A DNA stretch of 64,000 nucleotides from a virus: positions 1-64,000 of IMG/VR virus record IMGVR_UViG_3300037851_000570. One strand, written 5' to 3'. The position numbers were made by a program, and so were the translations under genes. Below are positions 1-16,072 of the stretch, in pieces (positions within the stretch are counted from its first letter, which is position 1; each line of letters starts with the position of its first letter). The notes beneath the pieces are model-generated. The model made no database searches, had not been told where the DNA came from, and saw only the letters and a list, made by a program, of their open reading frames with translations.

Positions 1-819
1 GTGAGCATGCGTGAACTCCTCGATGCCCTGGATGTCGGTCAGCTTGTGCTCGATCATGAAGCGCTTGGCGATCTTGGCCTCCTCGAGCTGGCTCGAGCCC
101 TCGTTGAAGAGCCGCTCGTACAACGCTCGTTCCTCGCGGCAGAGCTTGGTCAGCAAGTCGATGTTGTTCTTGCTGTCGCCCATCCTGGCGAAGTGCTGGA
201 TGCGGAACGAGAGTTGACGATGGGCATCTCGCAGGGCCATCTTGTGGTCGTACTTGGGATTTAGGCCTGCTCGGAAGAGCGCCTGCTGTGCTCCGCACTT
301 GAGTGAGGCGATCAGGTCATCGGCGTTCTCCCAGGTGGCGATCGCACGAATCCACTCGGTCGTGCTCCACGCCATGGGATTCCAGAAGTAGTGCCGGTAG
401 TACTCGATCATCTCGGTGGTCAGGCCGGGGTTGATGCGGAACCGCTTGCTGACCAGCTCGGCGATCCTCTGGTTCGGAACGTCACCCATCAGCAAGATGT
501 TGACGATCTCGGAGATGGGCTTGGCGGGAAGAAGGCCGCTGTAGATCCTGGTGAGATGCTCGTTGGGCTCCCACATATCCGCGATCTTCTCGGCCTTCAT
601 GAAGTCCTTGGTGGACTGGTCCTTGTGATTCGAGAACCGGAACCCCTCGGGGGGCGAGAAGTTGTCTCGGATCTTGTTGAACACCTTCTCGGTCAGTGGA
701 GGTAGGCCCCACTCGTAGAGGATGTCGCCCACCCACTCCCAGGTGACCTGACGCTCTTCATCCTTCCAAGCCTCTGCCAGAAGGAACTTGATGTATCGGC
801 CTGATGGGTGAAAGCACAT
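1..819 (-). CDS. hypothetical protein, 3' end runs off the left window edge (273 codons visible)
   Basis: Absent from the supplied ORF track because it is open-ended. Read by eye on the minus strand: ATG at 819-817, 4 nt after the TGA (825-823) of the upstream 666-aa gene. None of the 273 in-frame triplets down to position 1 is a stop. The translation MCFHPSGRYIKFLLAEAWKDEERQVTWEWVGDILYEWGLPPLTEKVFNKIRDNF... has ordinary protein composition, whereas plus-strand ORFs 1..264 and 391..705 look like antisense artefacts. No family recognised. Confidence 0.6.
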   Translation of the reverse strand, partial: MCFHPSGRYIKFLLAEAWKDEERQVTWEWVGDILYEWGLPPLTEKVFNKIRDNFSPPEGFRFSNHKDQSTKDFMKAEKIADMWEPNEHLTRIYSGLLPAKPISEIVNILLMGDVPNQRIAELVSKRFRINPGLTTEMIEYYRHYFWNPMAWSTTEWIRAIATWENADDLIASLKCGAQQALFRAGLNPKYDHKMALRDAHRQLSFRIQHFARMGDSKNNIDLLTKLCREERALYERLFNEGSSQLEEAKIAKRFMIEHKLTDIQGIEEFTHAH

Positions 820-822
820 GGC

Positions 823-2823
823 TCAGTTCCCCGGCGCCGAATCGCGCTGCTGGAGGGAGCGCAAGCCTCGCAACACGTCTTCCATGGCGACAAGCATGCG
901 CTCGACCGCCACCTCAGGGACCTCCTTGAGGCCGATGCGTACCGCAACCAGCATCTCGGCCAGCTTCGAGGATGCTGACTCCAACGAAGGCAGCAGGTCG
1001 ACGAACGTCGAGACATTCTCGGCGTTGAGGAAGCCAAGGCCCAAGATCTTGTCGGCTGTCAGCGCGTCATCGAGCACCGCGGCTTCCTTGGCCAGGAAGT
1101 AGTTGTGGATCGGTGGGTCGAGCTCGGCGAGCTCCTGGGCGATCTTGACTCGGATGCCTGCCATCTTCTCCGGCACACTGCCCAGCTCCCTCAGGTTTCC
1201 CACCTGGACGAGCTCGCCTTTCTGAGCTCGGGCCAGAGCCTGCTTGCAGAAGCCGGGCTCCATTCCGAGCGCCACCCCCAGGAACATTGCCTTGTCGTGA
1301 TCGATGAACTTGGTGTTGGCCTCTGCGACCTTGGCGATTGCCGGACCACGGAAGCTAAAGACGCCGGAGCGGTCCCCAACGATGCCGACGCGAGCTGTCT
1401 GCTTGGAGCCGAGCTTCGAGAACATAGCCGGCTCGCTGACGAGCTCCGCCTTGCCTCGCAACGGCATCCAGTTGAAGGTTGTCGGCACTACATACTCGTT
1501 CTCCCCGATCTTGACCGGGACCTTGAGGCCCTCACCGAACGAGAAGGTAACGGGCTGACCGAGGTCGTCCTGCCCCTGGTAACGCAGCCCGGCCGGCGTG
1601 CGGAGCGTGCTCTGAACGTTCATGGGCACGAACGCCTTCGCGGTACCATGGTCGATGTAGTACAGCGTCCCGTACCCCTGCGGCACTCCTTTGGGTAGGT
1701 CGGTGGACTTGCCGGCCGGCATGCCAGCAATGTGCTCCTGCACGCAGTGCTGCGAGCCGTTGTTGAACAACGACAGGGGGAGGGGCTGGAGGTCCATACT
1801 GAGCAGCTGTGGGAACACCCAACCGATCATGCTGTTGCCTGTCGAGTCCTGAACCTTCCAGAGCCCGAAGGAATCGGCGACCTTGATCTCCTCGAGCTCC
1901 ATCGTCTCTTTGATGGCGGCGTCGGGGCTCACCGTGATGGTGCCGTCCGCCTCGAGCTGTTGAATCATGTCGGCGTCGCCAGCGAGGTCCTGCGCGACCG
2001 CCATCGGGACCTCTTCCTGTTGCGGGGAAAAGAACTCGCCGTTGGCCCACTTGACCAGCACCCGGTCACTGCCGAGCTTGGTGAGCTGAACGACCGTCGG
2101 CTTGATCTTCTCGGTCACCACCTGTGCGGTCTTCTGAAGGTCCGTCGCCGTCAGGCCCAGCGCCGAACGGAATGCTGCGATCACGCCGGGGTCGGCGTTG
2201 ACGACCGCGGTCTTGAGAGATTCGTCCTGCATGGCGGTCTTGAGGCGCTCGACATGCTCCGGATTGACCTGGCCGTGCAGCATGGGCAGCAGCGGAAGCT
2301 TCTCGATCTCGGCCGACCCCAGCTTGGTGCCGCCACCTCCAAAGCCTCCGTACCCGGCGCGAAGCGGTGGCTGGAGCTCGTTGATGAGCGACGGGTCGAA
2401 AGGCCGCATGCGGGCCACATCGAACGGCTCGGGGCGGAACAGGGCCTCTCGCAGGCGAGCTTCGGTCAGGTGGTGGTACTTCTTTCCACTGAGGAAAATG
2501 TCGAACGGAGAGAGCATCTGCTCCTTGATGATGATCGGGATGTGGGCGACCCCAAGCCCTGATTCCTTGCGCTCCTCGACCGTCATGGCCGACTTGGGGC
2601 GTACCTCGATGGACCCGAAGGCGTAGCCACGCTCCTCGTCGATCTTGTCCAGCACGACCGAGGGTGTGAACTCGCTGAGGCAGGGGCACTGCTTGTAGGC
2701 AGCCTGCATGATCTCCTGCTGCCAGTTGTCCACGTTGTCGCTCATGCGTGTCATCATGCCGGCCAGCTTTTCTTCGCCGCCGAACGTCATGGGCTTGTCG
2801 AGAAAGAGAGGTTGGGTATCCAT
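823..2823 (-). CDS. hypothetical virion-module protein (666 aa)
   Basis: Long ORF on the same strand, starting 9 nt downstream of the spike gene, with high third-position GC. No NTPase motifs. Contains a Gly run (AGYGGFGGGGTKLG). No family recognised by eye, so the structural/ejection role is inferred from position only. Confidence 0.75.
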   Translation of the reverse strand: MDTQPLFLDKPMTFGGEEKLAGMMTRMSDNVDNWQQEIMQAAYKQCPCLSEFTPSVVLDKIDEERGYAFGSIEVRPKSAMTVEERKESGLGVAHIPIIIKEQMLSPFDIFLSGKKYHHLTEARLREALFRPEPFDVARMRPFDPSLINELQPPLRAGYGGFGGGGTKLGSAEIEKLPLLPMLHGQVNPEHVERLKTAMQDESLKTAVVNADPGVIAAFRSALGLTATDLQKTAQVVTEKIKPTVVQLTKLGSDRVLVKWANGEFFSPQQEEVPMAVAQDLAGDADMIQQLEADGTITVSPDAAIKETMELEEIKVADSFGLWKVQDSTGNSMIGWVFPQLLSMDLQPLPLSLFNNGSQHCVQEHIAGMPAGKSTDLPKGVPQGYGTLYYIDHGTAKAFVPMNVQSTLRTPAGLRYQGQDDLGQPVTFSFGEGLKVPVKIGENEYVVPTTFNWMPLRGKAELVSEPAMFSKLGSKQTARVGIVGDRSGVFSFRGPAIAKVAEANTKFIDHDKAMFLGVALGMEPGFCKQALARAQKGELVQVGNLRELGSVPEKMAGIRVKIAQELAELDPPIHNYFLAKEAAVLDDALTADKILGLGFLNAENVSTFVDLLPSLESASSKLAEMLVAVRIGLKEVPEVAVERMLVAMEDVLRGLRSLQQRDSAPGN

Positions 2824-2832: not shown

Positions 2833-3972
2833 CTACATCGTTTTCACTACTTGGGAAACGCATGTCGCGAGAACAGGCTTCATGACCGCGCCCGGTGCAA
2901 AGACTGCTGGGCTTCCAGGGGCCGCGCAGATGATCGAGGCCGATAGAGCGTCGCACAGACCTTCCAACCAGGTCTTGAGCTCTGTCCCCATCACACCCTG
3001 AGAAGCGGCCCCGGCGCCACCCAGCTTGATCGAGGGGGCGTCGATGACATGACCCGTTGACTTCTCGATGATGCTGGCGCCGGCTTCGACGTTGACGTCT
3101 TCAGTCTCGGACTTGAGCGACATGGCCTTGTTGGAGGTCGCCGAGAGCGTTCCAGCTGTAGCCACGACTTCGATGTTGCCTTCCGTAGACTCCACCATGA
3201 TGTTCTTCTTGGCTGTCAGGTTCCAGTCCTTCTCCAGAGACCAAGAAACTGTGCCCTCATTGTCACAGAGCAGGGAGATCATCAGCTTTCTCGAGTCATC
3301 AGCCCCCTGGTCGTACAGGTTGAGCAACAGTGTAGCCGTATCGTTGGGTCCGTGGGAACCGATCGTCAGCTCGGCGAGGTGAAGCTGGTTGTTGGCCTTC
3401 TCCTTGACCTTCAACGAGAACTTGGTCGGCGCTGCTCCATCGATCGTCTGATCGGTACGGTCCGTAATCCAGGTGAGCTCTCCACCTAGAGTGAAGAGCT
3501 CGTAGTTCTCGCAGAAGTCCTTGATGAAGTTGCGGATTGGAATGAACATCCGCTGGGTCATGGGGTTCGCGCCAAGCTGTACGACCCCGCCGCGGCGCAG
3601 GATGACGAAGTTCTCGTCTCTAGTCCTCATCATGATGTCGCCAGGGTTCAAAGTCTGGCGGCCGTTCCGGTAGGTGGCAGTGTCCTCATCGAACGGCGCC
3701 TGGAACCCCAATACAAACGGCGCGGCGAATCTACCCTGGGTCGGTCGGCAGACCCACACCAGACACCCTGGCTCCGGCTGAACGTAGATGCCTTCCCCGT
3801 TCATAAAGTGGAAGTACGGGCTCATCACCTGGATGTCGAAGTACCGCTTGTTGCCGTACTCCGAGATGACGTCGACCGTCCAGTCGTTCACATTGACGTT
3901 GATGATCCGGCCCGTGTCGATCGACGCCGGCACCCACTCGCCCTCTGCGTGTGATCTCTTCCGTGGGTTCAT
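2833..3972 (-). CDS. central tail spike / baseplate hub protein (gpV / gp5 / VgrG-like)
   Basis: 379-aa ORF. The N-terminal OB-fold-like signature is typical of phage spikes (GRIINVNVNDWTVDVISEYGNKRYFDIQVMSPYFHFMNGEGIYVQPEPGCLVWVCRP...PFVLGF). It is followed by a beta-helix-like run of short strands (NIMVESTEGNIEVVATAGTLSATSNKAMSLKSETEDVNVEAGASIIEKSTGHVIDAPSIKLGG). Its ATG (3972-3970) overlaps the RNAP stop (3974-3972) as ATGA. Confidence 0.55.
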   Translation of the reverse strand: MNPRKRSHAEGEWVPASIDTGRIINVNVNDWTVDVISEYGNKRYFDIQVMSPYFHFMNGEGIYVQPEPGCLVWVCRPTQGRFAAPFVLGFQAPFDEDTATYRNGRQTLNPGDIMMRTRDENFVILRRGGVVQLGANPMTQRMFIPIRNFIKDFCENYELFTLGGELTWITDRTDQTIDGAAPTKFSLKVKEKANNQLHLAELTIGSHGPNDTATLLLNLYDQGADDSRKLMISLLCDNEGTVSWSLEKDWNLTAKKNIMVESTEGNIEVVATAGTLSATSNKAMSLKSETEDVNVEAGASIIEKSTGHVIDAPSIKLGGAGAASQGVMGTELKTWLEGLCDALSASIICAAPGSPAVFAPGAVMKPVLATCVSQVVKTM

Positions 3973-6900
3973 CAGTACATCCAGGGCTCTTCTTCCGTAC
4001 CCTTACCAAATTCCTTGGCATAAGCCATCCCAGGAATAGGGTGCGTGCTGTGGAGAGCAGACCGCCACCCCTCAGCAGCAGCATCTAGTACCGTGGCCTT
4101 GAGGTCACGGCTCTGCATACGGGCCAGCCAGTCGGTCTGCATCTCGAGGGGCAGCATGTTGACACCCTGAAGGACATGCTTAACCTGGACCGGCTTCTTC
4201 TTGCCGTGGACAGCAGTGTTGAACGCATGAACCTCGGATGTTGGAATACGGTCCCCAGGAAGCAGAGCCGGGTGGTCCCCTGCATCCAAGACCTCCGAGA
4301 GATTGGTCATGGCCCGAACGAACGTCTCGATGTTGCGCTTCCGAACCGGCCCCTCATTCTTGTAGACATTCCAGATCTCGTCGGTGAGGAACCGCTGGAC
4401 CGTCGGCATGTTGGTGTACTTCAACAGATCAAGGGGGTTCTTGGTGCCGGTAGAGATCGAGTCTCCCGCCTTCACCGAGCCGCCCTTCTTGACAGTGAGC
4501 TCCCGCCCTGCCGGGACGTAGTGGCGCTGACCAGCCACATAGATACTCCAACCACCAGCTGGGTCCTTCTCGACCTTCTCGATCTTGCCGTCGACTGAAG
4601 CCAGAGTCGCGGCTCCAGGTAGTTTCTTCGGAACATTGAGAAGCTGCTCGAGCCGGCGGAACATGCTGGTCGCGCTCGTGCCCTTGGCTCCGACGACACC
4701 TCCAGTATGAAAAGCGTTCATCGCCAACTGGGTGGCGGGTTCACCGAGTGCCTGCGCGGCTATCACTCCGACGTTCGTTCCCTCCTGGAACAGATTGCCG
4801 TTCTCCGACAGACCGTAGCACTTCGCGCACATACCCTTGCCATGCTGACAACGGAGCGGGCTACGGACCGGGACCTCTTTGACCTTGTTGTTCTTCAGTC
4901 GACTCAGGAGGTCGGGCGTGACCAACGTACCGGCCGGGATGGGCTCTTTCTTGTCCGAGAGCTTGATGTCTGAGGCGGTGTAGCGGTCCAAAACATCTCG
5001 GTCGTCGACCGGCATCGAGACACCCTTCTTGGTCCCGCAGTCCTCCCCTACGATCAGCTGGTTCATTGTAGTCTGGACTAGCTGCTTCGACATCTTGCCG
5101 GGAGCCTGGGTGCCCTGAACCCGACCGATAGTTCCCATCCGAGCCCCATGCATCGACGCCCAGTACGATCCGATGTCGAGACCTTCCGAGTAGGATTTGC
5201 CAATAGGGATCGGGACGGGCTTGCCATAGGAGTCGGCCACAAGCAGAGGTGCTACCGTCATCTGCTTGAACTGGTCCCAACTGCCACGAGCCCCCGACTT
5301 GATCCAGTCGTACATCCGGTTCCCGGAGGTCTCGGCTCGAGCCTTGGCGAGCTGGTCGATCTTCTGGCCGGCGTTGACGTAGAGCTCGACGATCTTCTCG
5401 TTCCTCTTGTTGGGCTCTTTGATGCGCTCTCGAATGTGCACCTCTTCCCTGGCCGCGGCCTGAAGAATTGGATCTCGAGACTGATGGTCAGACTCGAAGT
5501 CCTTGAGGCTGATCGACAACCCAGTCGCGTACTCGTTGCCCAAGTCCTTGAGCTTGTCCGAGACCTTCCCGAAGTCCCCCGGCGTTTTGACCGCCACTTC
5601 GGTCAACAAACCCTTGAGGGCCTTGTCGTTGAGCTGGTAGGTCGGGTCGTACAGCAGTCGATTGTCCCGTAGGTCTGGTGGGAGTGCCCGATAGACCATC
5701 AACCTGCCAACCGTGGTCTTGACCGGTGCCGATAGCTTCTCTAGGTCCTGCTCGATACGGTCCAAGGACACCAGGTCAGTCATATTGATCTGGCCGTCCT
5801 TGACAGCTCGCGCAGCCTCCGCCGGCGATGCATACCGCTTGCCAGTGCGTCGCCCTATCTCCGTCATCTTGAACAGCCCCATGGTGGACTCGTGCTTCGG
5901 CTTGAACATCAGGAAGCCGGTACTCGGGCTGAACAGATTGTTGGACGGCATCATCTTGAAGGCCTCTTTGACGGCCTTGGCACTGACTGGAACGAATGCC
6001 GACATCTTGTCGCCGTCGAAGTCAGCGTTGTACCCGATAGTAGCGAGCGGATGGATCTTGACGGCCTTCCCTTCCATGATACGAGGCTTGAACGCCTGCA
6101 CTCCGAACTTGTGGAGCACGGGGTCCCGCTTCAGCATGATCGGCCGTTCTGCAAGCTCAGCTTCAAGAACATCTCTTACGAGCGGATGGTTCTCCCGAAT
6201 CATGACTTGGGCGTCGAGAGGGTTGGTACCCTGCCGGACCATACGCTGGACGACAAAGGGCTTGTAGAGCTCGAGCGCTGCCTTCCGCGGAATCCCTACC
6301 TCGTCGAGGCTCATCGACGGCTCCGGGATGATGACCCCGCGCATCGACAAGTCCTGGCGCTTACCGATGATCTTGTCTTGGAAGAACCCCTCCTTCGGCT
6401 GCTGTCCTTTTCGTCCAGCGATCATCTCGGCGATGGCGTTACGATGACGGCCTTGGTACATCGTGCCTGTCAGATGCAACGCCTTGACGGCGTCATAGAG
6501 CGCAGAGTGCAGGCCTACCTTCTCCTCTTCCGGCATCGCGGGGTCGATGTCCTTGAGCTTCTTGCTGACGACACCTACGTGGTTGTACATACGGTTGATG
6601 TCGTCGTAGTTGATGTCGCCGTTGGGCAGCACCGTGACTGGACGAAAGACAGGGGGAAGCACCGGCACATGCCGCATCGTGTAGGCCTCGGTCGGCTTCA
6701 GGTCAGTGCGCTCCAGAGCCCGTAGGTACTTGAGCTGTTTGTAGGCCTTGTCGAGTTTGCTGGTTCGGAGTGACGGGATCTTGGACTCCAACTCCTTCTT
6801 CATCCCCTTGGTGTCGAGCTTCTGAAGGGCGTGAACGATCGCTGTAGGCCCGGTCTTCCCGTCGAGCTCCTTCTGGCCGGACATGATGCTGCTGTAGGTA

Positions 6901-9900
6901 TTCCTCGTCAGCCCCAACAGCGCCATGACCGAACCTTCGAACGCCGGATTGGGGATGCGATCAGGCAATGTGATGTGCGCCCACTTGTGGCCCATCTGCC
7001 CGCCCTTTTCACTCCAGACAGTCCCCGTGATCTTAGGGTCGAAGATACCGCCCGGCTCCGGTCGCGCGTCTTTGGCCCGCAGAGTGCGCCCGGCGTCCAC
7101 AATCTCGCCGTTGCTCATCTCGAGGGTCTTCTTGTCGGTGAGCGGCTGGAGGATGAGGTCGTTGCCCTCCTTCTTGACGTCGATCCCCATACCCTTCAAG
7201 TAGCCCTCGAACTTCTTGAACACGAATGGGATCTTGGGGGTCGGGACCGAGTCTCCTGACTGGATCTGAGTCCAGAACTCGTCGTTCATGTCCGCTTTGT
7301 AGGACTGCATCTCCCGGATGTTCTCTCGGGCGTTGTGGGCCAGCATGGCGTACAGACCCATCGCGTCCATAGTCTGCGCGCCGTGCGGACCACCCCCGCG
7401 AGGCTGCATGTTGGAGTCGTAGGCGTCTCGAGACCGAGTCTGCAAACCTTTCTCGGCCATGTGGTGAAGCTTGAGGATGTACTGGGGGCCGGTCAGCACT
7501 TCGCCCAGCGACCGCTTGGTCTGCGGGTCAAACAGCTCCTCGGTGTCGCTGAGCCCGTGCTTCTTGAGCTCCGCCTGCAGGTTACGGGTGTAGTCGGTAT
7601 TCTTTGGGTCGAAGTTGTTGACGATGTATGGCTTACCGGTCTTCTCAGCAATACGGCCGGCGGCAGTCTCAAGGGCCTGGCCCAGATTGATACGGGTTGG
7701 GATGCCGGCTGGGTTGAGGATGACCTCAACGGCCTTCCCGTCTTTGGTCTGCGGCATCTGGTTGTCGGGCAGCACCTGGGTGATGACGCCCTTGTTGCCG
7801 TGGCGCCCCACAATCTTGTCACCCACGTCGGCCGAAGATGTGGCCTTCACATAGACGGTGACGTCCTTACCGTGCTTGACGACCCGGGAGACCACCCCAG
7901 GTCCGTCCTTGTCCCATCGGATCTCTCGGGGGCGTACGGGCTTGATGAGCTTCTTGGAGAAGAGACCGAGCTGCTGTTGCTCAGGAGTGACCTGCTCGGT
8001 CTTAAGCACACCGATCAAAATATCGTCTTTGTTGACGACCTGCCCTGGCTTCACGATGGCGTCGTCGTCTAGCTTGGCGGCCTGCTCCTTGGTGACCTGA
8101 CCGGCGGTGTGGGCAATGAACTTCTGCTTGTTGAGGATGGTGTCGGCCTCGACCCGCACCTTCTCACGGAGCATGTGCTCAGACGTCAGCTTCTGGGCTG
8201 CCGACTCCGAGATCACGATGCCGTCCTCGAAGTTGTAGCCACGATAGGGCATGTAGGCGACCCGCAGGTTCGACCCCAGTGCCAGTGTCCCGCCCTTCGT
8301 GAAGTTGGTGTCGGCCACTACTTGACCGGGGTGCACCAGGTCGCCTGCTTGTACCAGTGGATTGGAGTTGAGCACGCTCTTTGGGTCGTTCAACGGGAAG
8401 TCATCGTAGAGCTGGACCTCGTGGCGGTTGCCCTTTTTGTCCCGGATGATGATTCCGTCTCGACTCACCTTTTCGACTTTGCCGTCGACCCTCGAGACAT
8501 GACTGCTGAACTCCCCGATGGCCTGCTCGAACGTCTTGTTGGTGTCGCTCTTTACTTGCACCAGCGGCTTCTCACGGTTGACCAGTGCCACCGACTGCTC
8601 GAGCTGCCTGGAGGCCACCATCGTTCGATTACCCTGGTCGTTCTGGATGAACGGAATCAGGTTGGACGACAGGTCCAGCATGCCTTTGGGTGACGTCAGG
8701 ATATAGTCGACATCCTTCGACGAGATGGCGGTGATGACGCCTTCCGGGTCCGAGACCTTGACGGTGCGGCCCGTCGGCTTGGGCTTTCCGCCCTCCCAGT
8801 CATACTGGTCCGGGAACGCCAGGTTGGATTTCAGAGCCGTGCCGGGGTCAAGCATCACTCGCTTGCCGGTCTTGGCATTGATGACGGGAACCCGAAGCTC
8901 ATTGCCGACCTTCTTGACGGCTGAGGCCAGCTGCAACGTAACGCCAATACGCTCGCTCTCGGGCGTCTGGATCGGATCGAGGAACCCCATGTGGCTGGGG
9001 TTGATGGACTGCGCCTCCAACGACACCTGATGGGCCGACGTAATGCCACCCTCACCGGGAGCCATCAGAGTAGTGCGTCGGTTGCCTGACAGGAAGCTGA
9101 CCGGATTCATCTGGTCGGGCCGCTCAGCAAGAACCGAGCTGACAAAGAAGTTCTTGATGGGGCGACCGAAGATGTCGGGACTCAGAATGTTGCGCACCCG
9201 GTTGTGTTTGTCGAGCGTGTTCGTGATCTTGCGGTGCACGTCCTTCTGGGTCTTCCACTTTTGCAGCCGCTCGTTGATGAGGTCCTCGGCCGAGAAGAGA
9301 TCCTTGAACTGCAGAGAGTCCCGGTCGTCTGGAACGTCCTCTTGCCGTGCTACTCGTAGGATCTTGGACGACCCAGCCAGCAAGGCCTCGCCAGTTACCT
9401 TGTCGTAGGGCTTGCCCAACGTCAGTTGTGTGGAGTCAGGACGGAGCGCCGTCTTGTCGAGCTCGGTCAGCAGGAACTTCTTGGCGGCGTCCAGATTCTC
9501 GGGGAGCTCGTCCTTGAGCGACTTGTAGAAATCCTTGACGGCTTTCTCCTCGTTGACCTTCTTGTTGGCCGACAAGATCTCCTTGCCCCAGTTCTTCTCG
9601 ATGGTGTCGTCGTCGACTCCTAGCACTTTGAGGATTGGATAGACCGGAATCTTGGTGCCTTGGTCGGAGTGCCGAATGATCATCTTCTTCGACGCTGGGT
9701 CGAAGTTCATCTCGAAGCCGGCCCCCTTGGCGAGGTTCCACTGCGACGAGAGCTCACCGTTACCCTTCACACGAGTGTAGACCCCCGACTTCATACGAAA
9801 CAAGTTGTTGACCTGCCACTCGTTGCCGTTGACGATGTAGCTGTACCGACGGGTGATCTTGGGTAGCTGCGCGACGTTCATAACCTGGCGGTCCAACACC

Positions 9901-10148
9901 TTGCCGGTTTGCTTGTCGCGGAGCTCCAACTCTGCACGAATAGGTACCGACCAGGTCCTGCCGGTCAGCTTGGCCAGTTTCTGTGACCGGATGTCGTCGA
10001 TGTCGACCTTGTCCTCGACCCAAACCTTGTTGGCGACAAGAACGTTCTTCTGCCCTTCGATGGGGAAGGAGTTCTTGATGGTGTTGGCAGTGCGATCCTT
10101 GAGGACTTCGAACGCTTCTTGAGGCGCGTAGTGGGCCATCTCATCCAC
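3972..10148 (-). CDS. fused RNA polymerase beta/beta-prime (RpoB-RpoC-like) single polypeptide, 2058 aa
   Basis: Single uninterrupted ORF. The N-terminal ~995 aa carry RpoB landmarks in order: LPKITRRYSYIVNGNEWQV; NPVSFLSGNRRTTLMAPGEGGI...INPSHMGFLDPIQTPESERIG; AYMPYRGYNFEDGIVISE; GDKIVGRHGNKGVITQVLP (GRHGNKG aa 781-787 = nt 7788-7808); GPQYILKLHHMAEKGLQTRS. The C-terminal ~1060 aa carry RpoC landmarks: KWAHITLPDRIPNPAF; VPVLPPVFRP; GKRQDLSMRGVIIPEP; LKRDPVLHKFGVQAFKP; catalytic IGYNADFDGDKMSAF (NADFDGD aa 1374-1380 = nt 6009-6029); GEDCGT...RCQHGKGMCAKCYG; VGVIAAQALGEPATQLAMNAFHTGG. The ORF-track start is GTG at 10148. The ATG at 10139, with AGGGGTGG 5 nt upstream, is the more likely start. 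Confidence 0.9.
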   Translation of the reverse strand: MDEMAHYAPQEAFEVLKDRTANTIKNSFPIEGQKNVLVANKVWVEDKVDIDDIRSQKLAKLTGRTWSVPIRAELELRDKQTGKVLDRQVMNVAQLPKITRRYSYIVNGNEWQVNNLFRMKSGVYTRVKGNGELSSQWNLAKGAGFEMNFDPASKKMIIRHSDQGTKIPVYPILKVLGVDDDTIEKNWGKEILSANKKVNEEKAVKDFYKSLKDELPENLDAAKKFLLTELDKTALRPDSTQLTLGKPYDKVTGEALLAGSSKILRVARQEDVPDDRDSLQFKDLFSAEDLINERLQKWKTQKDVHRKITNTLDKHNRVRNILSPDIFGRPIKNFFVSSVLAERPDQMNPVSFLSGNRRTTLMAPGEGGITSAHQVSLEAQSINPSHMGFLDPIQTPESERIGVTLQLASAVKKVGNELRVPVINAKTGKRVMLDPGTALKSNLAFPDQYDWEGGKPKPTGRTVKVSDPEGVITAISSKDVDYILTSPKGMLDLSSNLIPFIQNDQGNRTMVASRQLEQSVALVNREKPLVQVKSDTNKTFEQAIGEFSSHVSRVDGKVEKVSRDGIIIRDKKGNRHEVQLYDDFPLNDPKSVLNSNPLVQAGDLVHPGQVVADTNFTKGGTLALGSNLRVAYMPYRGYNFEDGIVISESAAQKLTSEHMLREKVRVEADTILNKQKFIAHTAGQVTKEQAAKLDDDAIVKPGQVVNKDDILIGVLKTEQVTPEQQQLGLFSKKLIKPVRPREIRWDKDGPGVVSRVVKHGKDVTVYVKATSSADVGDKIVGRHGNKGVITQVLPDNQMPQTKDGKAVEVILNPAGIPTRINLGQALETAAGRIAEKTGKPYIVNNFDPKNTDYTRNLQAELKKHGLSDTEELFDPQTKRSLGEVLTGPQYILKLHHMAEKGLQTRSRDAYDSNMQPRGGGPHGAQTMDAMGLYAMLAHNARENIREMQSYKADMNDEFWTQIQSGDSVPTPKIPFVFKKFEGYLKGMGIDVKKEGNDLILQPLTDKKTLEMSNGEIVDAGRTLRAKDARPEPGGIFDPKITGTVWSEKGGQMGHKWAHITLPDRIPNPAFEGSVMALLGLTRNTYSSIMSGQKELDGKTGPTAIVHALQKLDTKGMKKELESKIPSLRTSKLDKAYKQLKYLRALERTDLKPTEAYTMRHVPVLPPVFRPVTVLPNGDINYDDINRMYNHVGVVSKKLKDIDPAMPEEEKVGLHSALYDAVKALHLTGTMYQGRHRNAIAEMIAGRKGQQPKEGFFQDKIIGKRQDLSMRGVIIPEPSMSLDEVGIPRKAALELYKPFVVQRMVRQGTNPLDAQVMIRENHPLVRDVLEAELAERPIMLKRDPVLHKFGVQAFKPRIMEGKAVKIHPLATIGYNADFDGDKMSAFVPVSAKAVKEAFKMMPSNNLFSPSTGFLMFKPKHESTMGLFKMTEIGRRTGKRYASPAEAARAVKDGQINMTDLVSLDRIEQDLEKLSAPVKTTVGRLMVYRALPPDLRDNRLLYDPTYQLNDKALKGLLTEVAVKTPGDFGKVSDKLKDLGNEYATGLSISLKDFESDHQSRDPILQAAAREEVHIRERIKEPNKRNEKIVELYVNAGQKIDQLAKARAETSGNRMYDWIKSGARGSWDQFKQMTVAPLLVADSYGKPVPIPIGKSYSEGLDIGSYWASMHGARMGTIGRVQGTQAPGKMSKQLVQTTMNQLIVGEDCGTKKGVSMPVDDRDVLDRYTASDIKLSDKKEPIPAGTLVTPDLLSRLKNNKVKEVPVRSPLRCQHGKGMCAKCYGLSENGNLFQEGTNVGVIAAQALGEPATQLAMNAFHTGGVVGAKGTSATSMFRRLEQLLNVPKKLPGAATLASVDGKIEKVEKDPAGGWSIYVAGQRHYVPAGRELTVKKGGSVKAGDSISTGTKNPLDLLKYTNMPTVQRFLTDEIWNVYKNEGPVRKRNIETFVRAMTNLSEVLDAGDHPALLPGDRIPTSEVHAFNTAVHGKKKPVQVKHVLQGVNMLPLEMQTDWLARMQSRDLKATVLDAAAEGWRSALHSTHPIPGMAYAKEFGKGTEEEPWMY

Positions 10149-10307
10149 CCCTATGCCATCTTCAGCAGTGTGGGCCGCCTAGGCATGTGGAGGAACGTAC
10201 AGACCTCCTATATCTCACGGAAATTCGCATCATGGAAGACGGTATAAGAGAATTGGTAGGGCCCACGTTCGCATTCTTTCAACCCAGTCACTGTTCGGAG
10301 GAATCTA
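10149..10307. promoter_or_regulatory. divergent intergenic region between the RNAP gene and the plus-strand small-gene island (probable promoters, not mapped)
   Basis: 159 nt without a credible ORF, visibly less GC-rich than its flanks, with genes diverging on both sides. Contains the 8-bp palindrome GCCTAGGC (10177-10184). I could not place a convincing -35/-10 pair. Confidence 0.3.
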
Positions 10308-10469
10308 ATGCCGGGTACGAGCGTAACGGACATCTTCGCGGAGGAATTGGATAGCATGGTCAGCGGAGGCTGCCCAGACAACTACGACAACGACAACGAC
10401 GACTACAACTACGAGGACGAAGACAAGGAACGAGACACTCGCCAACAACAGGACGAAGACGACAATTGA
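10308..10469 (+). CDS. very acidic 53-aa protein (hypothetical)
   Basis: Below the ORF-track size cut-off and found by eye. ATG at 10308 is preceded by GGAGGAAT (10297-10304), with TGA at 10467-10469. Translation: MPGTSVTDIFAEELDSMVSGGCPDNYDNDNDDYNYEDEDKERDTRQQQDEDDN, with 19 D/E against 3 K/R. It is the first ORF of the plus-strand island. Confidence 0.4.
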   Translation: MPGTSVTDIFAEELDSMVSGGCPDNYDNDNDDYNYEDEDKERDTRQQQDEDDN

Positions 10470-10694
10470 TGCTGCTGCGCATCTTCGTCCTCGGTCTAGT
10501 TGCGGGCTTCTCAGGGAGGCTCGCGCATGAGATACGTCAGCGGTCCCGGGCCAAGCCCCTACCGGCCGATGCCGGGGGGTCGCCGCCCAATCCAGACGCC
10601 GACTGCGCCAGCTAGGCGCATCGTCACACCAAGAGTCACACTACCCGGCAGACCGCTGTCGCCGCCGGCCGCGGTCTGCCGGGTAGGAGTCTGC

Positions 10695-11294
10695 ATGAGA
10701 TGCGGAGACGAATTCCTGGGCCCGTTCGCCGTCCGCCTCATGCAAGGGAGGATCGAGTACCCAAAAGAACAACCAAACGAACCAAAGTTCACAGCCACGA
10801 AGTTCGGGGACAACGAGCGACTCAAGTGGCTATGCCCGCCCTGCTCGGCTGAATGCAAGATCATTCAGGACGCATGCTGCTTCCGCCCAAGCTCGGTGCT
10901 GGACGGCCTCTCGACCGGCTGGTGCTGTCTGTGCCACCAACCGGTCCAGCCCTACCCCATGAAGAACTGGGGGAGTGCGCTGAGCATAGAACTCGGCCGC
11001 ATGGCGATGAGCACCAAGTCTGGGGCCGAGCAGTTCTACCCGTTCCGGGACAAGGGTTACATCGGCCAGGTGGATTGGCAGTGCTCCACCTGGGAGTTGG
11101 GGTTGGACCTCAACCGTCTGATCGACCCTGATGATGCTCCGGACCCGGACGACTACCAACCCGAACCCGAAGAGGACGATCTCCCTGAGTACGAAGGGTG
11201 CGAGGGGTGTGGGCACTGCGAGTTTTGCCAATACCTGCTGGACACTGGTGACTTCGAAACCTACTTCGAGGAGCTCCGCAGTGAAACTGGGTAG
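10695..11294 (+). CDS. Cys-rich protein with acidic C-terminal region (hypothetical)
   Basis: The ORF track gives 10500..11294, but the first 65 codons are P/R-rich. The ATG at 10695 has GGTAGGAG 5 nt upstream. Product: MRCGDEFLGPF...WLCPPCSAECKIIQDACCF...WCCLCHQ...EGCEGCGHCEFCQYLL, with multiple CxxC pairs and a DPDDAPDPDDYQPEPEEDDLPEYE stretch. Confidence 0.55.
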   Translation: MRCGDEFLGPFAVRLMQGRIEYPKEQPNEPKFTATKFGDNERLKWLCPPCSAECKIIQDACCFRPSSVLDGLSTGWCCLCHQPVQPYPMKNWGSALSIELGRMAMSTKSGAEQFYPFRDKGYIGQVDWQCSTWELGLDLNRLIDPDDAPDPDDYQPEPEEDDLPEYEGCEGCGHCEFCQYLLDTGDFETYFEELRSETG

Positions 11295-11550
11295 GGTTGA
11301 GGGCGGGTACCTGTGCGATGTCTGTGGGGTGCCGCTGACTAGACCACACCCCATCATCCCCGATTCGTCAGGCAAGACCCTGAGGTTCTGCCGCCCCTCG
11401 AATCCACCGAAGCTCGATGACTGCTTCGTCGAGCACTTCCTGAGAGAGTACATCGTTCAGGAGGTTGAGCGGCAGGTCCGTAAAGAGCTGAAGGAGTTGC
11501 TGGAACAAGTGTGCCCGGCGTGCACGTCGCGCTTGCGGCAGTTCAAATAG
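11281..11550 (+). CDS. small zinc-ribbon protein (hypothetical)
   Basis: In-frame GTG at 11281 overlaps the preceding stop (11292-11294). The coherent part, VKLGRVEGGYLCDVCGVPL...RFCRP...LLEQVCPACTSRLRQFK, has CxxC...CxxC. The upstream part of track ORF 11131..11550 is an alternative frame of the previous gene. Confidence 0.5.
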   Translation: MKLGRVEGGYLCDVCGVPLTRPHPIIPDSSGKTLRFCRPSNPPKLDDCFVEHFLREYIVQEVERQVRKELKELLEQVCPACTSRLRQFK

Positions 11551-11556: not shown

Positions 11557-11576
11557 AGAGAGCCCGTTGGCTCTCT
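11557..11576. terminator. hairpin between convergent genes (candidate bidirectional terminator)
   Basis: AGAGAGCC (11557-11564), loop CGTT, GGCTCTCT (11569-11576): a perfect 8-bp stem followed by TTT on the plus strand. It lies exactly between the stop of 11281..11550 (+) and the stop of 11584..12297 (-). Confidence 0.55.
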
Positions 11577-11583: not shown

Positions 11584-12297
11584 TTAGGCGGTAGCTTGGC
11601 CCGCTTGATAGGCACCGAAGCCAACAGCTGCCGGGATGGCGCCGAGGCCTAGCATCTCGCGAATGCCCATACGCGGTGGCGCAGGGGCTGCTTGAGCTGG
11701 GGCAGCGGGCGCCCCAGCTTGCATGGGAGCCTGCGCGGGGGCAGCCGGCGCTGGCCGCTGCACACGCTGGATGTTCTGTGGTGTCATGGCCATCGGGGGA
11801 GGAGCTTGAATCGGTGCCCGAGGAATGGGAGCCGTGGCTTGCGCCGGCACGGCAGCTTGAGGAGTAGGAGTCGGAGCGCCCGGCATTATCTTGGAGGCCG
11901 TCGGTACATCTGCCCGGCCCAGAACCTTCGTTGTCTCTTGAGAAGGACGAGCGGCAGCTTGGGGTACCTGAGCCTTCGGTACGACCTCTCCCGTCTGCAT
12001 GAACCTCTTCATGTCATGGAGTTTAGGATCGACCTTGCCCTCTTGGAGCATCTTCTCCAGGCCCTGTCGCTTGGCCTCGGCTGCAGCCCGCTGCCTCGCT
12101 ACCAACCCCTCAGACTCCGTAATGGTCTTCTGGAGATTGCCAGCCGAGCCACGCAGCGCACCCATCTCGCCTCTTACAGCTTGATGGGGAGTTTTGGTAA
12201 TGGCACGAAGTCCCGACAACACAAAATCCCCCGCGGGGCCACCACGGGCGATCTTCTCCAGCTCGTCGAGAAAGGCTGAGTACATGTGCGGGTTCAT
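11584..12297 (-). CDS. P/A/Q-rich protein immediately downstream of portal (scaffold-like position; function unknown)
   Basis: 237-aa ORF whose start overlaps the portal stop by 4 nt. The N-terminal motif MYSAFLDELEKIARGG is shared with the 288-aa protein upstream of portal. It has a helical charged centre, a long PAxAP-type low-complexity region and a Gly/Ala-rich hydrophobic C-terminus (LGLGAIPAAVGFGAYQAG). Confidence 0.75.
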   Translation of the reverse strand: MNPHMYSAFLDELEKIARGGPAGDFVLSGLRAITKTPHQAVRGEMGALRGSAGNLQKTITESEGLVARQRAAAEAKRQGLEKMLQEGKVDPKLHDMKRFMQTGEVVPKAQVPQAAARPSQETTKVLGRADVPTASKIMPGAPTPTPQAAVPAQATAPIPRAPIQAPPPMAMTPQNIQRVQRPAPAAPAQAPMQAGAPAAPAQAAPAPPRMGIREMLGLGAIPAAVGFGAYQAGQATA

Positions 12298-14342
12298 ACG
12301 ATTGCCGCCTCCGGCCCTCTTCGTGGGGGGCGTTGCTCTGGCAAAGGCATTCCGGATGACGGACGGTCCGCCCCGGTCGTCGATTGAATCATCTGAAGAA
12401 CCAGCGAGTAGAGCTGCGGGTTCTTCTGTTGCATGCTCGTCATCTCGGCCTGCTTCTCATGGTCGGGGAGCTGATTGAGCCACGAGACCACCTGCTGCGC
12501 GACCATCATGAGGTCCACCTGAGCGCCCTGTTGACCTGCACCCAGTGGGGATGACGCATCGGAAAGCGGGTCCTGCGGCGCCTGATCGCCGCCTTGTGGC
12601 GGCTGCATCATCGAGGTGTCCATTGGCGGGACAGCACCCATCTGGTTCATCTGGCCGATCTGAGCGTTCATCATCTGGCCAGTCGCCATCGGGCTCGCCA
12701 TCCCAGGCTGACCCGAGGCCATCATGCCCTGCTCGGTCATCGCCTTCTGCTGCTCGGGCGGCATGGGGGGAACCTGCTGGTTCATCATGATCTTCTGGGC
12801 CCGACCCTGGTACTTGATGCCGACGAGCTGAGCCTCACCCTGGATGGCCGCCTGCGCGAGGGCCTGAGTGCGCTGGTTCTCCAAGACCATCTTCTGCTCG
12901 AGCTGGATCTGGTCCATCTCGTGTTTGTGATCGCGGTCCACGTCCTCGAGCAGCGTGCGATCCGACACCTTGCCGGCTTGATTGAGCTGCAAGTGGAACG
13001 CGCTGCGCTGTAGGTCGTCGGCCATCTTGAACGCTTTGTAGTGGCAGCCCACCACCTCCCAGCCCAAAAACGCGCCGACGTTCGGCATGATGAAGTCGAG
13101 CACCAACTGCTTGCGCTGTGTACGCTGGTCGAGGAAATGGTTCTCGAGAATGCGCATCGATACGTTGGAGCCGCTGTATTGCATGCCGCCGTAGACGAAC
13201 TCCACCGGCACGCCCATGCCCGCGATGATCTGCTCGGACCAAACCCGGTACTCCTGAGACAGCATGAGCGCCCGGCCTTCCGCGCCGAGGGTCTGCTGGC
13301 CGACCGGGATGGGCATGAGGGGGATGTAGTTGTTGTCGAGGCGCCACCGAATGAGCTCCTGCTCGATCTTGTCGCGCCACTGCGTCAGGTTGACGGTCGA
13401 GTAGACATCGGCTGAGCCCGAGGCGCTCTGTGGGAAAAGCAGGCGCAGAGGTACGATGTGCTCAACCGCGATGGCTTCTTGCGCCTTGCGCAGGACCTGA
13501 AGATAGAAAACGTCCTTGAGGACCGGCAGGATCATGGGCATTCCCCAGCCCTTGTCCTTCTGCGCGATCGTCGGGCGCTTCATGTGGTAGATGTTGTCTC
13601 GGCTGAACAGCAGCGCCTTGTTCTGCCGCAGCGCTTCGATGAACACTTGAGGGATGCGCTCGATGATGTACCGCTTGGCCATCCGGATGTCGTTGGCCAT
13701 TGTCGGTGGGATCGAATAGTAGTACCGGCTCTCCCCTGTCACATCGTTATGCTGCACCGTGATGTACTCAGGGTTCCATCGAATCAGCTTGATGTCTCGA
13801 ACCGACCGGACGTAGTGGTCTCGGACTCGGTACTCCTCATAGGAGCCGCAGCGCGGGCACTCACCAACGAACTTGTACTCTCGGAAGAGGTACTTGCACT
13901 CATCGGCCTTCTGGGTATGGCCGCACCGCTTGCAGATCAGGAGCTTGTAGAAGGGGTACGAGATCGAGATGAAGCAGTTGCCGTAGGTGTTGTAGTCTAG
14001 GCCGGCCTCGACCTCGAACTTCTTGAAGTTCAGAATGGCGCCGAAGAGATTCTCCCACTTCTTGCGGAGAGGCTCGTTGATACTGTCGAACACCAGGTCG
14101 GTGACCGAGTACTCGGCCATCTTGTAGTTGACGGCATTCACCAGCGGGTTGGTCAGGAAGTAGTAGCGGCACCACCGCAGCATCGTCTTGAACGACGACG
14201 GCAGATAGGTGTGCGCAATGTCGAAGAAGGGCGAGGGGTAGCGGATAGCCCCCAGAGCCTCGCTGGTCAGCGAACGGCCACTGTTCCTCGAGAACCGGAG
14301 CCCGCCAGCGGGGCCGAAGCTTAGTGCGTCGAGTTGCGGCAT
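12294..14342 (-). CDS. portal-like protein (682 aa) with zinc-ribbon insertion
   Basis: Called from architecture rather than a diagnostic motif. The supporting points are its size, its place in the virion block, and a Gln/Met/Pro-rich C-terminal tail (MNQQVPPMPPEQQKAMTEQGMMASGQPGM...QIGQMNQMGAVPPMD) like T7-type portal tails. It carries a CKRC...CPRC insertion (aa 137-165). Confidence 0.55.
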   Translation of the reverse strand: MPQLDALSFGPAGGLRFSRNSGRSLTSEALGAIRYPSPFFDIAHTYLPSSFKTMLRWCRYYFLTNPLVNAVNYKMAEYSVTDLVFDSINEPLRKKWENLFGAILNFKKFEVEAGLDYNTYGNCFISISYPFYKLLICKRCGHTQKADECKYLFREYKFVGECPRCGSYEEYRVRDHYVRSVRDIKLIRWNPEYITVQHNDVTGESRYYYSIPPTMANDIRMAKRYIIERIPQVFIEALRQNKALLFSRDNIYHMKRPTIAQKDKGWGMPMILPVLKDVFYLQVLRKAQEAIAVEHIVPLRLLFPQSASGSADVYSTVNLTQWRDKIEQELIRWRLDNNYIPLMPIPVGQQTLGAEGRALMLSQEYRVWSEQIIAGMGVPVEFVYGGMQYSGSNVSMRILENHFLDQRTQRKQLVLDFIMPNVGAFLGWEVVGCHYKAFKMADDLQRSAFHLQLNQAGKVSDRTLLEDVDRDHKHEMDQIQLEQKMVLENQRTQALAQAAIQGEAQLVGIKYQGRAQKIMMNQQVPPMPPEQQKAMTEQGMMASGQPGMASPMATGQMMNAQIGQMNQMGAVPPMDTSMMQPPQGGDQAPQDPLSDASSPLGAGQQGAQVDLMMVAQQVVSWLNQLPDHEKQAEMTSMQQKNPQLYSLVLQMIQSTTGADRPSSGMPLPEQRPPRRGPEAAIV

Positions 14343-14345
14343 CGG

Positions 14346-15212
14346 TTACCCGTAGTGCTTCTGGATACGCTCCAGCTGCTGGGCCGCTTCCTCTGGGGAT
14401 GGAGCGGACACGGCTTGATCCATCGTACCCCCAGCTCTCAGACGGTCAATGACTCTCCCGATACGGCCGCCAGCCTTGCTGGCGAGCCACCAGCCCGCCA
14501 AGCCTGGCACGGGGCCGAGGCCACCAGTGAAGATCATACCACCCAGACCTGCAGCCTCACCCAAGCCACGCTCGACAGCCCCTCCTTCACCTGTAGGAGT
14601 GGCCTTTGGAGCATTGACGATGCTGGGAATCGCCATGGCGCTGAAGCCTGGAATCAGGGCCTTCTGCCCGACCGGCAGGTACTTGGTGATTCGGCCTGCA
14701 CCTGTCACTCCGCGACGTGACAGCTCCTCGGCAGTTCCTCGTACACCGCCGGACGACCATGCCTTGCCCATCGTCTGACTGGGGGCCAAGAGATGCTCAC
14801 CCAGACTGAGTCCGGGAACAAAGCCCTTCAGCGCTGCCTGGCGCTGTTCAGGTGTAGCGCGGGCGGCGAAGTCCTCCAGTCCCCGGAACGTCTCTTTGGC
14901 ACCCTCAGCGACCGGAGTGTTGCGAACCGAGCGACTGAGCCCCGCAACGTTGCTCATCTCGTCCCAACCGGCCTTCAAGCCGGCCAGGGGTTTGGAGGCC
15001 CGGACGCCTAGGCTGATGTCCGAGGGGCCCCAAAGGTTGGTGCGGATCCCTTCGCCAACACGACCCATGGTTTTGACGACAGCTCTCGGCGCCAACTGAG
15101 TCCTGATCCTATCGCCCATGCGAAAGAGCCACTGTGGGGCCCCGGCCTTCTTGATCTGCTCGAGCTCGTCGGCAAATGCCACGAGAGCCCGTTGGTCTAG
15201 TGCGCCGCCCAT
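14346..15212 (-). CDS. Gly-rich virion-module protein (288 aa, hypothetical)
   Basis: ORF ending 4 nt before the portal start. It has the N-terminal motif LVAFADELEQIKKAG and a Gly-rich hydrophobic C-terminal third (GGAVERGLGEAAGLGGMIFTGGLGPVPGLAGWWLASKAGG). Confidence 0.75.
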   Translation of the reverse strand: MGGALDQRALVAFADELEQIKKAGAPQWLFRMGDRIRTQLAPRAVVKTMGRVGEGIRTNLWGPSDISLGVRASKPLAGLKAGWDEMSNVAGLSRSVRNTPVAEGAKETFRGLEDFAARATPEQRQAALKGFVPGLSLGEHLLAPSQTMGKAWSSGGVRGTAEELSRRGVTGAGRITKYLPVGQKALIPGFSAMAIPSIVNAPKATPTGEGGAVERGLGEAAGLGGMIFTGGLGPVPGLAGWWLASKAGGRIGRVIDRLRAGGTMDQAVSAPSPEEAAQQLERIQKHYG

Positions 15213-16072
15213 GCCTTCAGCTCCTCCAGCTGGTCGACCAGCTCCTGCTGGCGCTTCTTCATGTAGTCGTACGCTACCATGAGCTTGGCTGCCTGAACAT
15301 CCTCACTCACGTCGTCCTTGAGAGTGTTTGACTTGGACTCGTCGTTCAAGAGCTGCTCGAACCGAGCCTTTGTTGGCGCGGGGTCTCGGGTCAGGAACCT
15401 GTCGACGGAGCGCCCAGCGTCTTGAGGGACAAAATCAGCGGGCTTGAAGTTGAGGGCCCGGTCGTCCTGAAAACGCGCGGTGCAGAAGTCGCATCGTCCG
15501 TCGATGTCGTCGAGCTCGATGGTTCCACACCTCTTGCACCGGTACTTCGGCTCGGACAAGACCGACTGGGCAAAATCCAAAGGAGGCGGGAGGTATTCGA
15601 CCGCCTCGTCGATGGCACAGGCTGCAATGTATCGGGAGATCTCATCGCCATAGGCTTCGACTCTTATCGTATTGGCAATGTCGACGCCGGCCATGAGCTG
15701 CGAGATCGTGCAGCGTTGGGAGATGTCGAATCGCGGTACGTTGTTGTTGAGGGCCTGGATGATTTTTTCGAAGATGTGCCACTCTTGCCAGAAGCCCACC
15801 GTGGTCGTCAACGTACGGACCGCTTGAATCTTCTGCCAGTTGTTTTCACTGACGGACGTGGCTTTGAATGACTGAAGGATCTCTGACTTCAGAGTCTCGG
15901 CTTCCCACTCGAACCAGTCGGCGCCGAACTTCTCCATGAGCGCGAGGGTCAGAGCCACCGGATGAGCGTCGTGGTAGCTGAAGAACCGTACGATCGGCTC
16001 CAGCGACTGTTGGATAGGGGGTGGAATCTTCGCTGGGTCCATCCCCCATTTGAGGAGGAGGGAGCTCATCAC
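15197..16072 (-). CDS. hypothetical protein with internal zinc ribbon (291 aa)
   Basis: ORF overlapping both neighbours by a few nt, with good third-position GC. It has a CKRCG...CDFC pair near aa 180-200. No family recognised. Confidence 0.75.
   Translation of the reverse strand: MMSSLLLKWGMDPAKIPPPIQQSLEPIVRFFSYHDAHPVALTLALMEKFGADWFEWEAETLKSEILQSFKATSVSENNWQKIQAVRTLTTTVGFWQEWHIFEKIIQALNNNVPRFDISQRCTISQLMAGVDIANTIRVEAYGDEISRYIAACAIDEAVEYLPPPLDFAQSVLSEPKYRCKRCGTIELDDIDGRCDFCTARFQDDRALNFKPADFVPQDAGRSVDRFLTRDPAPTKARFEQLLNDESKSNTLKDDVSEDVQAAKLMVAYDYMKKRQQELVDQLEELKAWAAH

Follow-up and report, generated by a model that had tools for sequence, protein, structure and literature searches.

The RNA polymerase and spike genes

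The 64,000-nt stretch of viral DNA analysed here (IMG/VR record IMGVR_UViG_3300037851_000570, positions 1-64,000; the whole stretch is called the window, and its coordinates are used throughout) carries on its minus strand a gene coding for a single-chain RNA polymerase (RNAP), followed by one coding for a central-spike-like protein. The listed open reading frame (ORF) of the RNAP covers 3972-10148 (2058 codons, from a GTG at 10148). The likely start is the ATG at 10139, which gives a protein of 2055 amino acids (aa) encoded at 3972-10139, since relatives align from residue 4 onwards and the gene was also called at 2055 aa on L009, a contig of identical sequence. The β part of the protein (residues ~1-1040) contains the Pfam domains Rpb2_6 (E = 1.4e-60) and Rpb2_3 (2.3e-8), and is followed by a β′ part (~1050-2055) with Rpb1_2 (2.9e-28) and Rpb1_5 (1.7e-24), of which residues ~1092-2030 match bacterial β′ chains in the PDB with E-values from 1e-100 up to 3.5e-121. 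The translation includes the lysine-bearing GNKG segment of the β catalytic motif (GRHGNKGV), the metal-binding loop of β′ with its NADFDGD motif intact (YNADFDGD), and the bridge helix and trigger loop (SGARGSWDQFKQM and GEPATQLAMNAFHTGG). The phage encodes the catalytic core of an RNAP as one β-β′ polypeptide, as an earlier note made from the DNA letters had claimed, with both sets of domains and the catalytic motifs in place. The β′ alignments start near residue 170 of the bacterial chains, and there is no cysteine in the ~80 residues between the end of β and residue ~1092; the N-terminal zinc-binding domain of β′ is therefore, on this alignment, absent. The protein is also predicted to be insensitive to rifampicin, because the β pocket binding this drug differs at five key positions (Q513E, F514R, H526G, S531T and L533M, in E. 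coli numbering, aligned by eye).

The fused form is not particular to this genome. The best 150 representatives at 50% identity all cross the β/β′ junction, and are mostly ~2000-2100 aa or longer, with a few shorter ones which may be fragments. The 120 closest clusters of homologues range from 1729 to 2944 aa, each with β and β′ domains, and a total of 685 clusters were found below 1e-50, many of them with inteins and on contigs of up to ~215 kb. The RNAP and portal genes of two relatives, L003 (7029-15500, 880-5784) and L004, carry in-frame insertions of ~1 kb, and many RNAP homologues of 2400-2940 aa contain LAGLIDADG, Hom_end or intein-splicing domains. In this clade, both genes seem to be common sites of inteins.

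The second gene (2833-3972, minus strand) codes for a protein of 379 aa with a β-rich N-terminal part and a C-terminal β-helix. Its Pfam match to DUF2345 is weak (E = 0.0036), with matches to DUF2345 or Gp5_C also found in some of its 269 relatives. A profile built from 43 sequences and searched against the PDB matched, over residues 220-318, the β-helix of VgrG from the type VI secretion system (E = 0.0015) and that of T4 gp5 (0.1-0.5). The sequence was further modelled with AlphaFold2 (predicted local distance difference test score, pLDDT, of 74.7) and the model compared with the PDB using Foldseek. Each of the best 28 matches (to E = 0.011) is a spike or a spike chain of a baseplate, with a probability of 0.97-1.00 (1.00 for 23 of them). 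The spike of the Algoriphagus extracellular contractile injection system (7aef_q, 4e-6) comes first, and further matches include phi92 gp138 (3pqi), R2 pyocin (4s37), phi812, VgrS/VgrG1, P2 gpV, Mu and P1. The TM-scores are low (0.17-0.27 by query), as they should be when a protein that forms an interdigitated trimer is modelled as a monomer. A tblastn search with the spike against cultured-phage records, including that of Salmonella phage Arash, gave no match. At the level of the fold, the modelled structure supports the identification of this product as a central spike, and the proposal of a gpV/gp5/VgrG-like protein stands.

The junction between both genes reads ...TGG ATG TAC TGA TGA ACC..., where the TGA stop codon of the RNAP ends at 3972 and the ATG of the spike begins at the same base. 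The two genes therefore overlap by 1 nt (TGATG, the A of the stop being that of the ATG). The overlap at 3972 had been correctly noticed in the earlier note, while its description as a 4-nt ATGA was not accurate. Overlapping or abutting genes are frequent elsewhere in the window, as for instance at 16069/16072, 15197/15212, 12294/12297 and 52937.

Conservation of the gene order

The spike profile was used for finding related loci in IMG/VR, which yielded 76 loci, of which 75 have sequence upstream of the spike and 62 represent non-redundant junctions. The first five IMG/VR loci compared already presented the RNAP, the spike and a homologue of the 666-aa protein encoded next in the window (823-2823, minus strand), in that order. 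In the complete set, the RNAP lies directly upstream of the spike and on the same strand, followed by the 666-aa homologue, in 75 of 75 loci, with RNAP identities of 35-69%, and the 666-aa homologue is found behind the spike in all 76. Holding in every locus with upstream sequence, this order is by our comparison beyond chance, and the synteny in related metagenomic contigs, named in the earlier note as a check, is borne out. In every locus with a long enough flank, the portal gene precedes the RNAP by 1-1.8 kb.

The junction itself is more variable. Among the 62 non-redundant junctions, 14 have exactly the 1-nt overlap, 2 have another overlap, 18 have gaps of 0-30 nt and 7 have gaps of 31-120 nt, while the remaining 21 hold 0.3-1.9 kb with extra small ORFs; overlaps or gaps of at most 30 nt thus account for 34 of the 62. 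The same 1-nt overlap is found in L010, a 215,519-bp NCBI contig (GCA_034680565.1 / JAXOUH010049212.1) whose RNAP is 44% identical, and four genes separate the RNAP from the spike in L011. The flanks vary as well: L010 has a ribonucleotide reductase between the portal and the RNAP, and the downstream genes include a DNA ligase (L008), a C39 peptidase (L010) or a helicase.

Promoters and mRNA leader

The RNAP gene is preceded by a divergent control region of 168 bp (10140-10307), which separates it, reading leftward, from a rightward cassette of small genes, and the window has just one other AT-rich island without coding sequence. Comparison of this region among relatives revealed a motif, TTAT[ACG]CC (mostly CTTATACC). 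Of 54 non-redundant loci, 32 have it 43-153 nt before the ATG of the RNAP and one more has it at -291, against an expectation of 0.04 per locus. It was never seen in the opposite orientation upstream of the RNAP, and the structural strand has 82 copies of CTTATACC in 1.7 Mb of loci, compared with a single copy on the opposite strand. In the window, the element (10248-10241, minus strand) is followed by a predicted sigma70-like core (10194-10222, minus strand) consisting of TTCCGT (10222-10217), a 17-nt spacer and TACGTT (10199-10194), so that the order is CTTATACC, N18, TTCCGT, N17, TACGTT. The -35 is degenerate here, where relatives have TTGACC/TTGACA. Their composite pattern is the motif, ~18-25 nt, TTGACC/TTGACA or TTGCCA, 17-18 nt and TAnnnT, with near-consensus cores in L010 (TTGACA-18-TACCCT) and L011 (TTGACC-17-TATCAT).

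A promoter of the same class is predicted in front of the portal/head operon (17509-17566, minus strand), with CTTATCCC (17566-17559), TTGCCC (17538-17533), an 18-nt spacer and TAGGTT (17514-17509). Over the 1.7 Mb of loci the composite pattern has 20 matches on the structural strand and none on the other, and all 20 precede either the RNAP or the 463-aa protein gene which comes first in the head operon (at 17566 in the window, and in L004, L010 and L011). The composite promoter of the RNAP unit is that of the portal/head operon in three divergent genomes. Since the matches precede these two genes only, the RNAP/spike unit and the portal/head operon are predicted to be driven by one promoter class. 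The upstream motif is also present 34 nt before the called start of TerL in L009.

Two other assignments were considered. A look-alike sequence (CTTATGCC) at 4024, in the 3′ end of the RNAP gene, could have served the spike, but it is missing from all 61 relatives, and no conserved promoter motif was found in the RNAP 3′ end of any of these 61; the spike accordingly has no conserved promoter of its own. Reading the motif as the -10 box (TATAAG) of the rightward genes is disfavoured by the 82:1 strand bias and by the sigma70-like core which follows it on the RNAP strand. A fourth copy of CTTATACC on the minus strand (33423-33431) lies inside the plus-strand RusA gene with no minus-strand gene nearby, and is probably due to chance. 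The motif emerged only from comparing relatives, direct-repeat and intergenic k-mer searches of the window alone having given no promoter motif. A search of the replication block (17001-37000) for sigma70 promoters of the E. coli consensus found 0 against 3.3 ± 1.9 expected, which is weak evidence for early transcription independent of the host RNAP.

The leader of the RNAP mRNA contains a stem-loop (10152-10185, minus strand, 13-46 nt before the ATG) that was likewise recognised by comparison. All 10 close relatives compared retain its inner stem of 5 bp, with four of the five pairs changed on both sides, and its outer stem shows partial covariation. It could be an mRNA-stabilising or autoregulatory element.

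Genes surrounding the RNAP unit

The 666-aa protein downstream of the spike has 152 homologues and was modelled with a pLDDT of 80, and for this model the fold search found no match in the PDB and just one uncharacterised phage homologue in BFVD. Sequence and profile searches of the PDB with this protein and with the 463-aa protein were empty, and neither Pfam nor PHROGs gave anything for the 666-, 207-, 237-, 288-, 291- and 463-aa ORFs. The next ORF (1-818, minus strand) is open at the left end of the window and corresponds to the first 272 codons of a 309-aa protein in L009. This identical Logan contig continues with genes for a 188-aa protein, a 767-aa SNF2 helicase (13583-15886 in L009, just outside the window on its left side), a 133-aa protein, a reversed RNase HII and TerL. 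The RNAP is thus the first gene of a leftward unit which comprises the RNAP, the spike, the 666-, 309- and 188-aa proteins and the SNF2 helicase, and which is flanked by the portal operon on one side and the terminase gene on the other. The earlier note had placed further unassigned virion-module proteins here, but what follows the spike does not establish such a module: the fold search gave no annotated match for the 666-aa protein, and the genes behind it are those just listed. The SNF2 helicase is homologous to Gp217 of Arash (6e-46) and may, by analogy, be a RapA-like partner of the RNAP. Such a SNF2 partner has been proposed for phiKZ-like phages (PMC7824862).

Upstream of the RNAP, the reversed cassette (10308-11550, plus strand) comprises three small genes whose reversed orientation is conserved in relatives. 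The first (10308-10469) codes for a very acidic, D/E/N-rich protein of 53 aa and has a strong GGAGG ribosome-binding site, while the other two code for a Cys-rich protein of ~255 aa (~10500-11294) and a zinc-ribbon-like one of ~89 aa (~11281-11550), both of these larger proteins being rich in cysteine and resembling zinc ribbons. Candidate roles for the cassette proteins are early regulation or DNA mimicry. Conservation of their sequences was seen only in relatives with an RNAP at least 54% identical, and small reversed genes also precede the RNAP in L008, L010 and L011. Where the cassette and the portal operon converge there is an 8-bp hairpin (11557-11576; dG -17.4 kcal/mol, z -2.1), a possible bidirectional terminator with a weak T-run. 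Beyond it lies the head operon (11584-17451, minus strand), in which overlapping genes of conserved order code for the 463-, 291- and 288-aa proteins, the portal and a 237-aa protein. The portal, its fourth gene (12294-14342, minus strand), matches that of Arash by tblastn (4e-84), and also that of Bacillus phage G. As the earlier note had it, the RNAP lies downstream of the portal and away from the replication block; its placement in one virion operon with the portal has to be abandoned, since three plus-strand genes and the hairpin intervene and a separate unit begins with the RNAP.

The window is part of the genome, of ~200 kb, of an uncultured tailed phage. It was ruled out as a complete genome because ORFs are open at both of its ends and a 202,100-bp contig carries an identical 666-aa protein. 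The plus-strand block at 17606-36158 is devoted to replication, with genes for a SNF2/ResIII helicase, UDG, DnaB, primase, PolA, a RecA-like protein, RusA and a PD-(D/E)XK nuclease. Two strong canonical intrinsic terminators (35428-35455 and 36162-36185, plus strand), with GC stems of 12 and 10 bp followed by T-runs, are located at the end of this block, where a minus-strand block converges on it. The latter occupies 36-64 kb and codes for very large proteins, one of them with a tail-fibre chaperone domain. At 38624-63899 (minus strand), successive ORFs of 1267, 1518, 1288, 1986 and >1415 aa are met with near silence from the databases: a Peptidase_S74 chaperone domain, of the kind usual in tail fibres or spikes, was recognised at the C-terminus of the 1518-aa protein alone, the remaining Pfam and PHROG results being weak PKD and PHROG matches. 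The 1986-aa gene contains internal direct repeats of ~1.15 kb (56027-58544). No tRNA and no Rfam family were found in searches of the window, no sheath, tube or baseplate genes were recognised within it, and Pfam found no alpha, omega or sigma subunit there.

Comparison with cultured relatives

The nearest annotated phages according to the RNAP are Vibrio phages D69, D148 and D181 and Salmonella phage Arash, with 30-33% identity over 70-94% of the length. The list of best matches among annotated phage records also includes Acinetobacter phage MD-2021a, for a range of 28-33%. As in the window, Arash and the three Vibrio phages encode a bacterial-type β/β′ RNAP right after the portal. Their β is however fused to the N-terminal part of β′ only (1525-1527 aa) and followed by a separate ORF for the C-terminal part, the Arash chains being of 1525 and 606 aa (Gp206 and Gp216), in contrast with the one chain found here. 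Their portal gene belongs to one operon of overlapping genes with a small ORF and the RNAP, and the reversed cassette of the window is absent. The SNF2-type helicase of Arash, Gp217, adjoins the C-terminal β′ chain, and its homologue belongs to the RNAP unit described above. Arash further has two annotated sigma factors, Gp10 and Gp196, the second of which has no homologue in the window or in L008-L011. Aligning profiles with hhalign gave a marginal probability of 9.5% for the 666-aa protein against Arash Gp218, and nothing for the spike against Gp220.

Arash is described as a myovirus, and its gradient-purified particles have been analysed by proteomics (PMC10585845). Gp206 was the protein most detected, with 128 unique peptides and 3516 spectra, and Gp216 came fifth (40/1210), compared with 38/1148 for Gp217, 32/877 for the portal and 24/467 for the sigma factor Gp10 (PMC10585845). 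From these data (PMC10585845), the RNAP chains and the helicase exceed the portal in spectra per residue. The authors considered either a role in early transcription or the carry-over of abundant proteins (PMC10585845).

Expression and possible packaging of the RNAP

The RNAP is predicted to be co-transcribed with the spike, from a promoter whose class is common to the portal operon and whose core looks readable by the host. We favour, at roughly an even chance, the reading in which its synthesis accompanies that of the head and tail-tip proteins and the particle contains it, probably along with the SNF2 helicase. Coupled translation of one mRNA would yield both RNAP and spike, and the packaged enzyme would enter the cell with the DNA and start phage transcription, which newly made RNAP would continue later. 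The best support for packaging comes from the Arash particles, which are suggestive without amounting to proof and are those of a distant relative. Virion delivery as put forward in the earlier note also gains from the order found in 75 of 75 loci, the tight junctions in 34 of 62 and the promoter shared with the head operon, and loses from the host-like promoter of the RNAP and the non-structural enzymes in its unit. Early expression from an own promoter at 10149-10307 had been named there as evidence to the contrary; a promoter is indeed predicted in that interval and may be active early, and its class is also that of the portal/head operon.

Several points weigh against packaging. The -35 and -10 of the RNAP promoter could be readable by a host sigma70 holoenzyme, and early synthesis without packaging is therefore possible. 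The unit also holds enzymes which need no role in the virion, such as the SNF2 helicase here, the DNA ligase of L008 and the C39 peptidase of L010, and a third of the relatives (21/62) have 0.3-1.9 kb between the RNAP and the spike. Pfam found no sigma factor in the window that would guide a packaged core to its promoters, and the conserved order may reflect the phylogenetic inertia of a core gene block. As for Arash, the list of particle proteins has 116 entries, including ribonucleotide reductases, so that contamination is possible (PMC10585845), and what it appears to share with the window at the sequence level is limited to the portal, the RNAP and the helicase.

In an alternative reading, the RNAP is a non-virion enzyme. 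The host RNAP would read the 10194-10222 promoter soon after infection, and the phage RNAP, made de novo, would transcribe the middle and late genes, following the logic of T7 or of the non-virion enzyme of phiKZ, its position near the spike and portal reflecting a conserved core order and shared timing rather than delivery. We see this as a genuine possibility, while leaning against it. The promoter with its host-like -35 and -10 is conserved across the clade, and the A/T-rich stretch just upstream of the -35 resembles, in our own reading, an UP element, which the alpha subunit of the host recognises. In its unit the RNAP always comes first, behind the reversed cassette and ahead of non-structural enzymes, and its N-terminus aligns with those of relatives from residue ~4, leaving no obvious targeting extension. 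However, the promoter class being the same for the portal/head operon, the head genes would be early as well, and so would the spike, which lacks a conserved promoter and would be made with the RNAP; neither does a purely intracellular enzyme sit well with RNAP chains and helicase exceeding the portal in spectra per residue in purified Arash particles.

A bolder version of packaging seems unlikely to us, namely that the clade packages its single-chain bacterial-type RNAP with a RapA-like SNF2 ATPase and injects both, in a manner reminiscent of poxviruses, as a ready-made machine reading sigma70-style promoters, perhaps with a captured host or phage sigma factor. The invariant pairing of RNAP and spike would then mean loading or delivery via the tail tip, in the way that VgrG spikes are found beside their cargo. 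More improbable still is that the adjacency is inherited order in a slowly rearranging block from portal to terminase, silent on function and timing, with the 1-nt overlap as ordinary packing in a compact genome. In favour of this, the window has many other overlapping or abutting genes, insertions of 0.3-1.9 kb occur at the junction in 21 of 62 loci, and L011 has four genes there. Against it, none of the 75 loci departs from the order, even where RNAP identity falls to 35%, although their flanking content varies, and portal and RNAP stay linked in Arash and D69, which have hardly anything else recognisable in common with the window.

Relation to known phage and cellular RNAPs

If the RNAP is packaged, it would show how a phage carries a cellular-style transcription machine into the cell. 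The enzyme could be expressed as one protein, might assemble without alpha and would probably be insensitive to rifampicin. With at least 150 clusters at 50% identity, on contigs of up to ~215 kb, the family is large enough for a rule on the expression and delivery of its RNAP to hold for many phages in the environment. The shared promoter offers a concrete template that can be tested, with Arash and Vibrio phage D69 as cultured proxies.

A close description is that of mReC (Weinheimer and Aylward 2020, PMC7481178), a group of metagenomic tailed phages in which, as here, deep-branching bacterial-like β and β′ genes were found with standard RNAP profiles. In the available portion of that paper, the terms fused and fusion are applied to crAssphage only, and "virion" and "packaged" are not used; the clade of the window is likened to mReC by description and best matches. 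The phages phiKZ and AR9 also encode a two-barrel RNAP of the multisubunit type, which is packaged and injected and makes infection independent of rifampicin, and a SNF2 helicase co-occurs with their RNAP genes as it does here (PMC7824862, PMC13282480). In those phages the β and β′ equivalents are split into four or five highly divergent polypeptides, a second set is non-virion and a sigma factor plays no part, whereas the RNAP of the window is one chain that stays close to bacterial enzymes (E of 1e-121 to β′). Split forms are likewise the only virion RNAPs in the portions available of a 2026 review on jumbo phages and of a 2021 comparative study.

A single packaged polypeptide is known from the crAss-like phage phi14:2, whose gp66 is very large, contains both barrels and is encoded among structural genes (bioRxiv 10.1101/2020.03.07.982082). 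The crAss enzymes escape RNAP sequence profiles (PMC7481178), whereas the RNAP of the window gives strong Pfam matches for both β and β′. The vRNAP of N4 is delivered with the virion and encoded among late or structural genes, but it is of the single-subunit, T7-like type. In Thermus phage P23-45, the virion RNAP is covalently fused to the tape measure, while the RNAP and spike of the window are separate proteins. The earlier note had presented a packaged β-β′ fusion as a fourth solution, which overstates its novelty because P23-45 and the Arash data were left off the list of precedents. Among cellular organisms, rpoB-rpoC fusions occur in Helicobacter and Wolbachia, where β is joined to β′ in the natural order of the genes. 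These fusions are full-size cores which use alpha and omega, in contrast with the phage protein of ~2055 aa, which seems to lack the zinc-binding domain of β′. To our knowledge, the proven virion RNAPs are all single-subunit T7-like enzymes, extremely divergent two-barrel ones or split multisubunit sets. A near-bacterial core packaged in one chain, if this is what the clade carries, would be the simplest natural form of the cellular-type RNAP.

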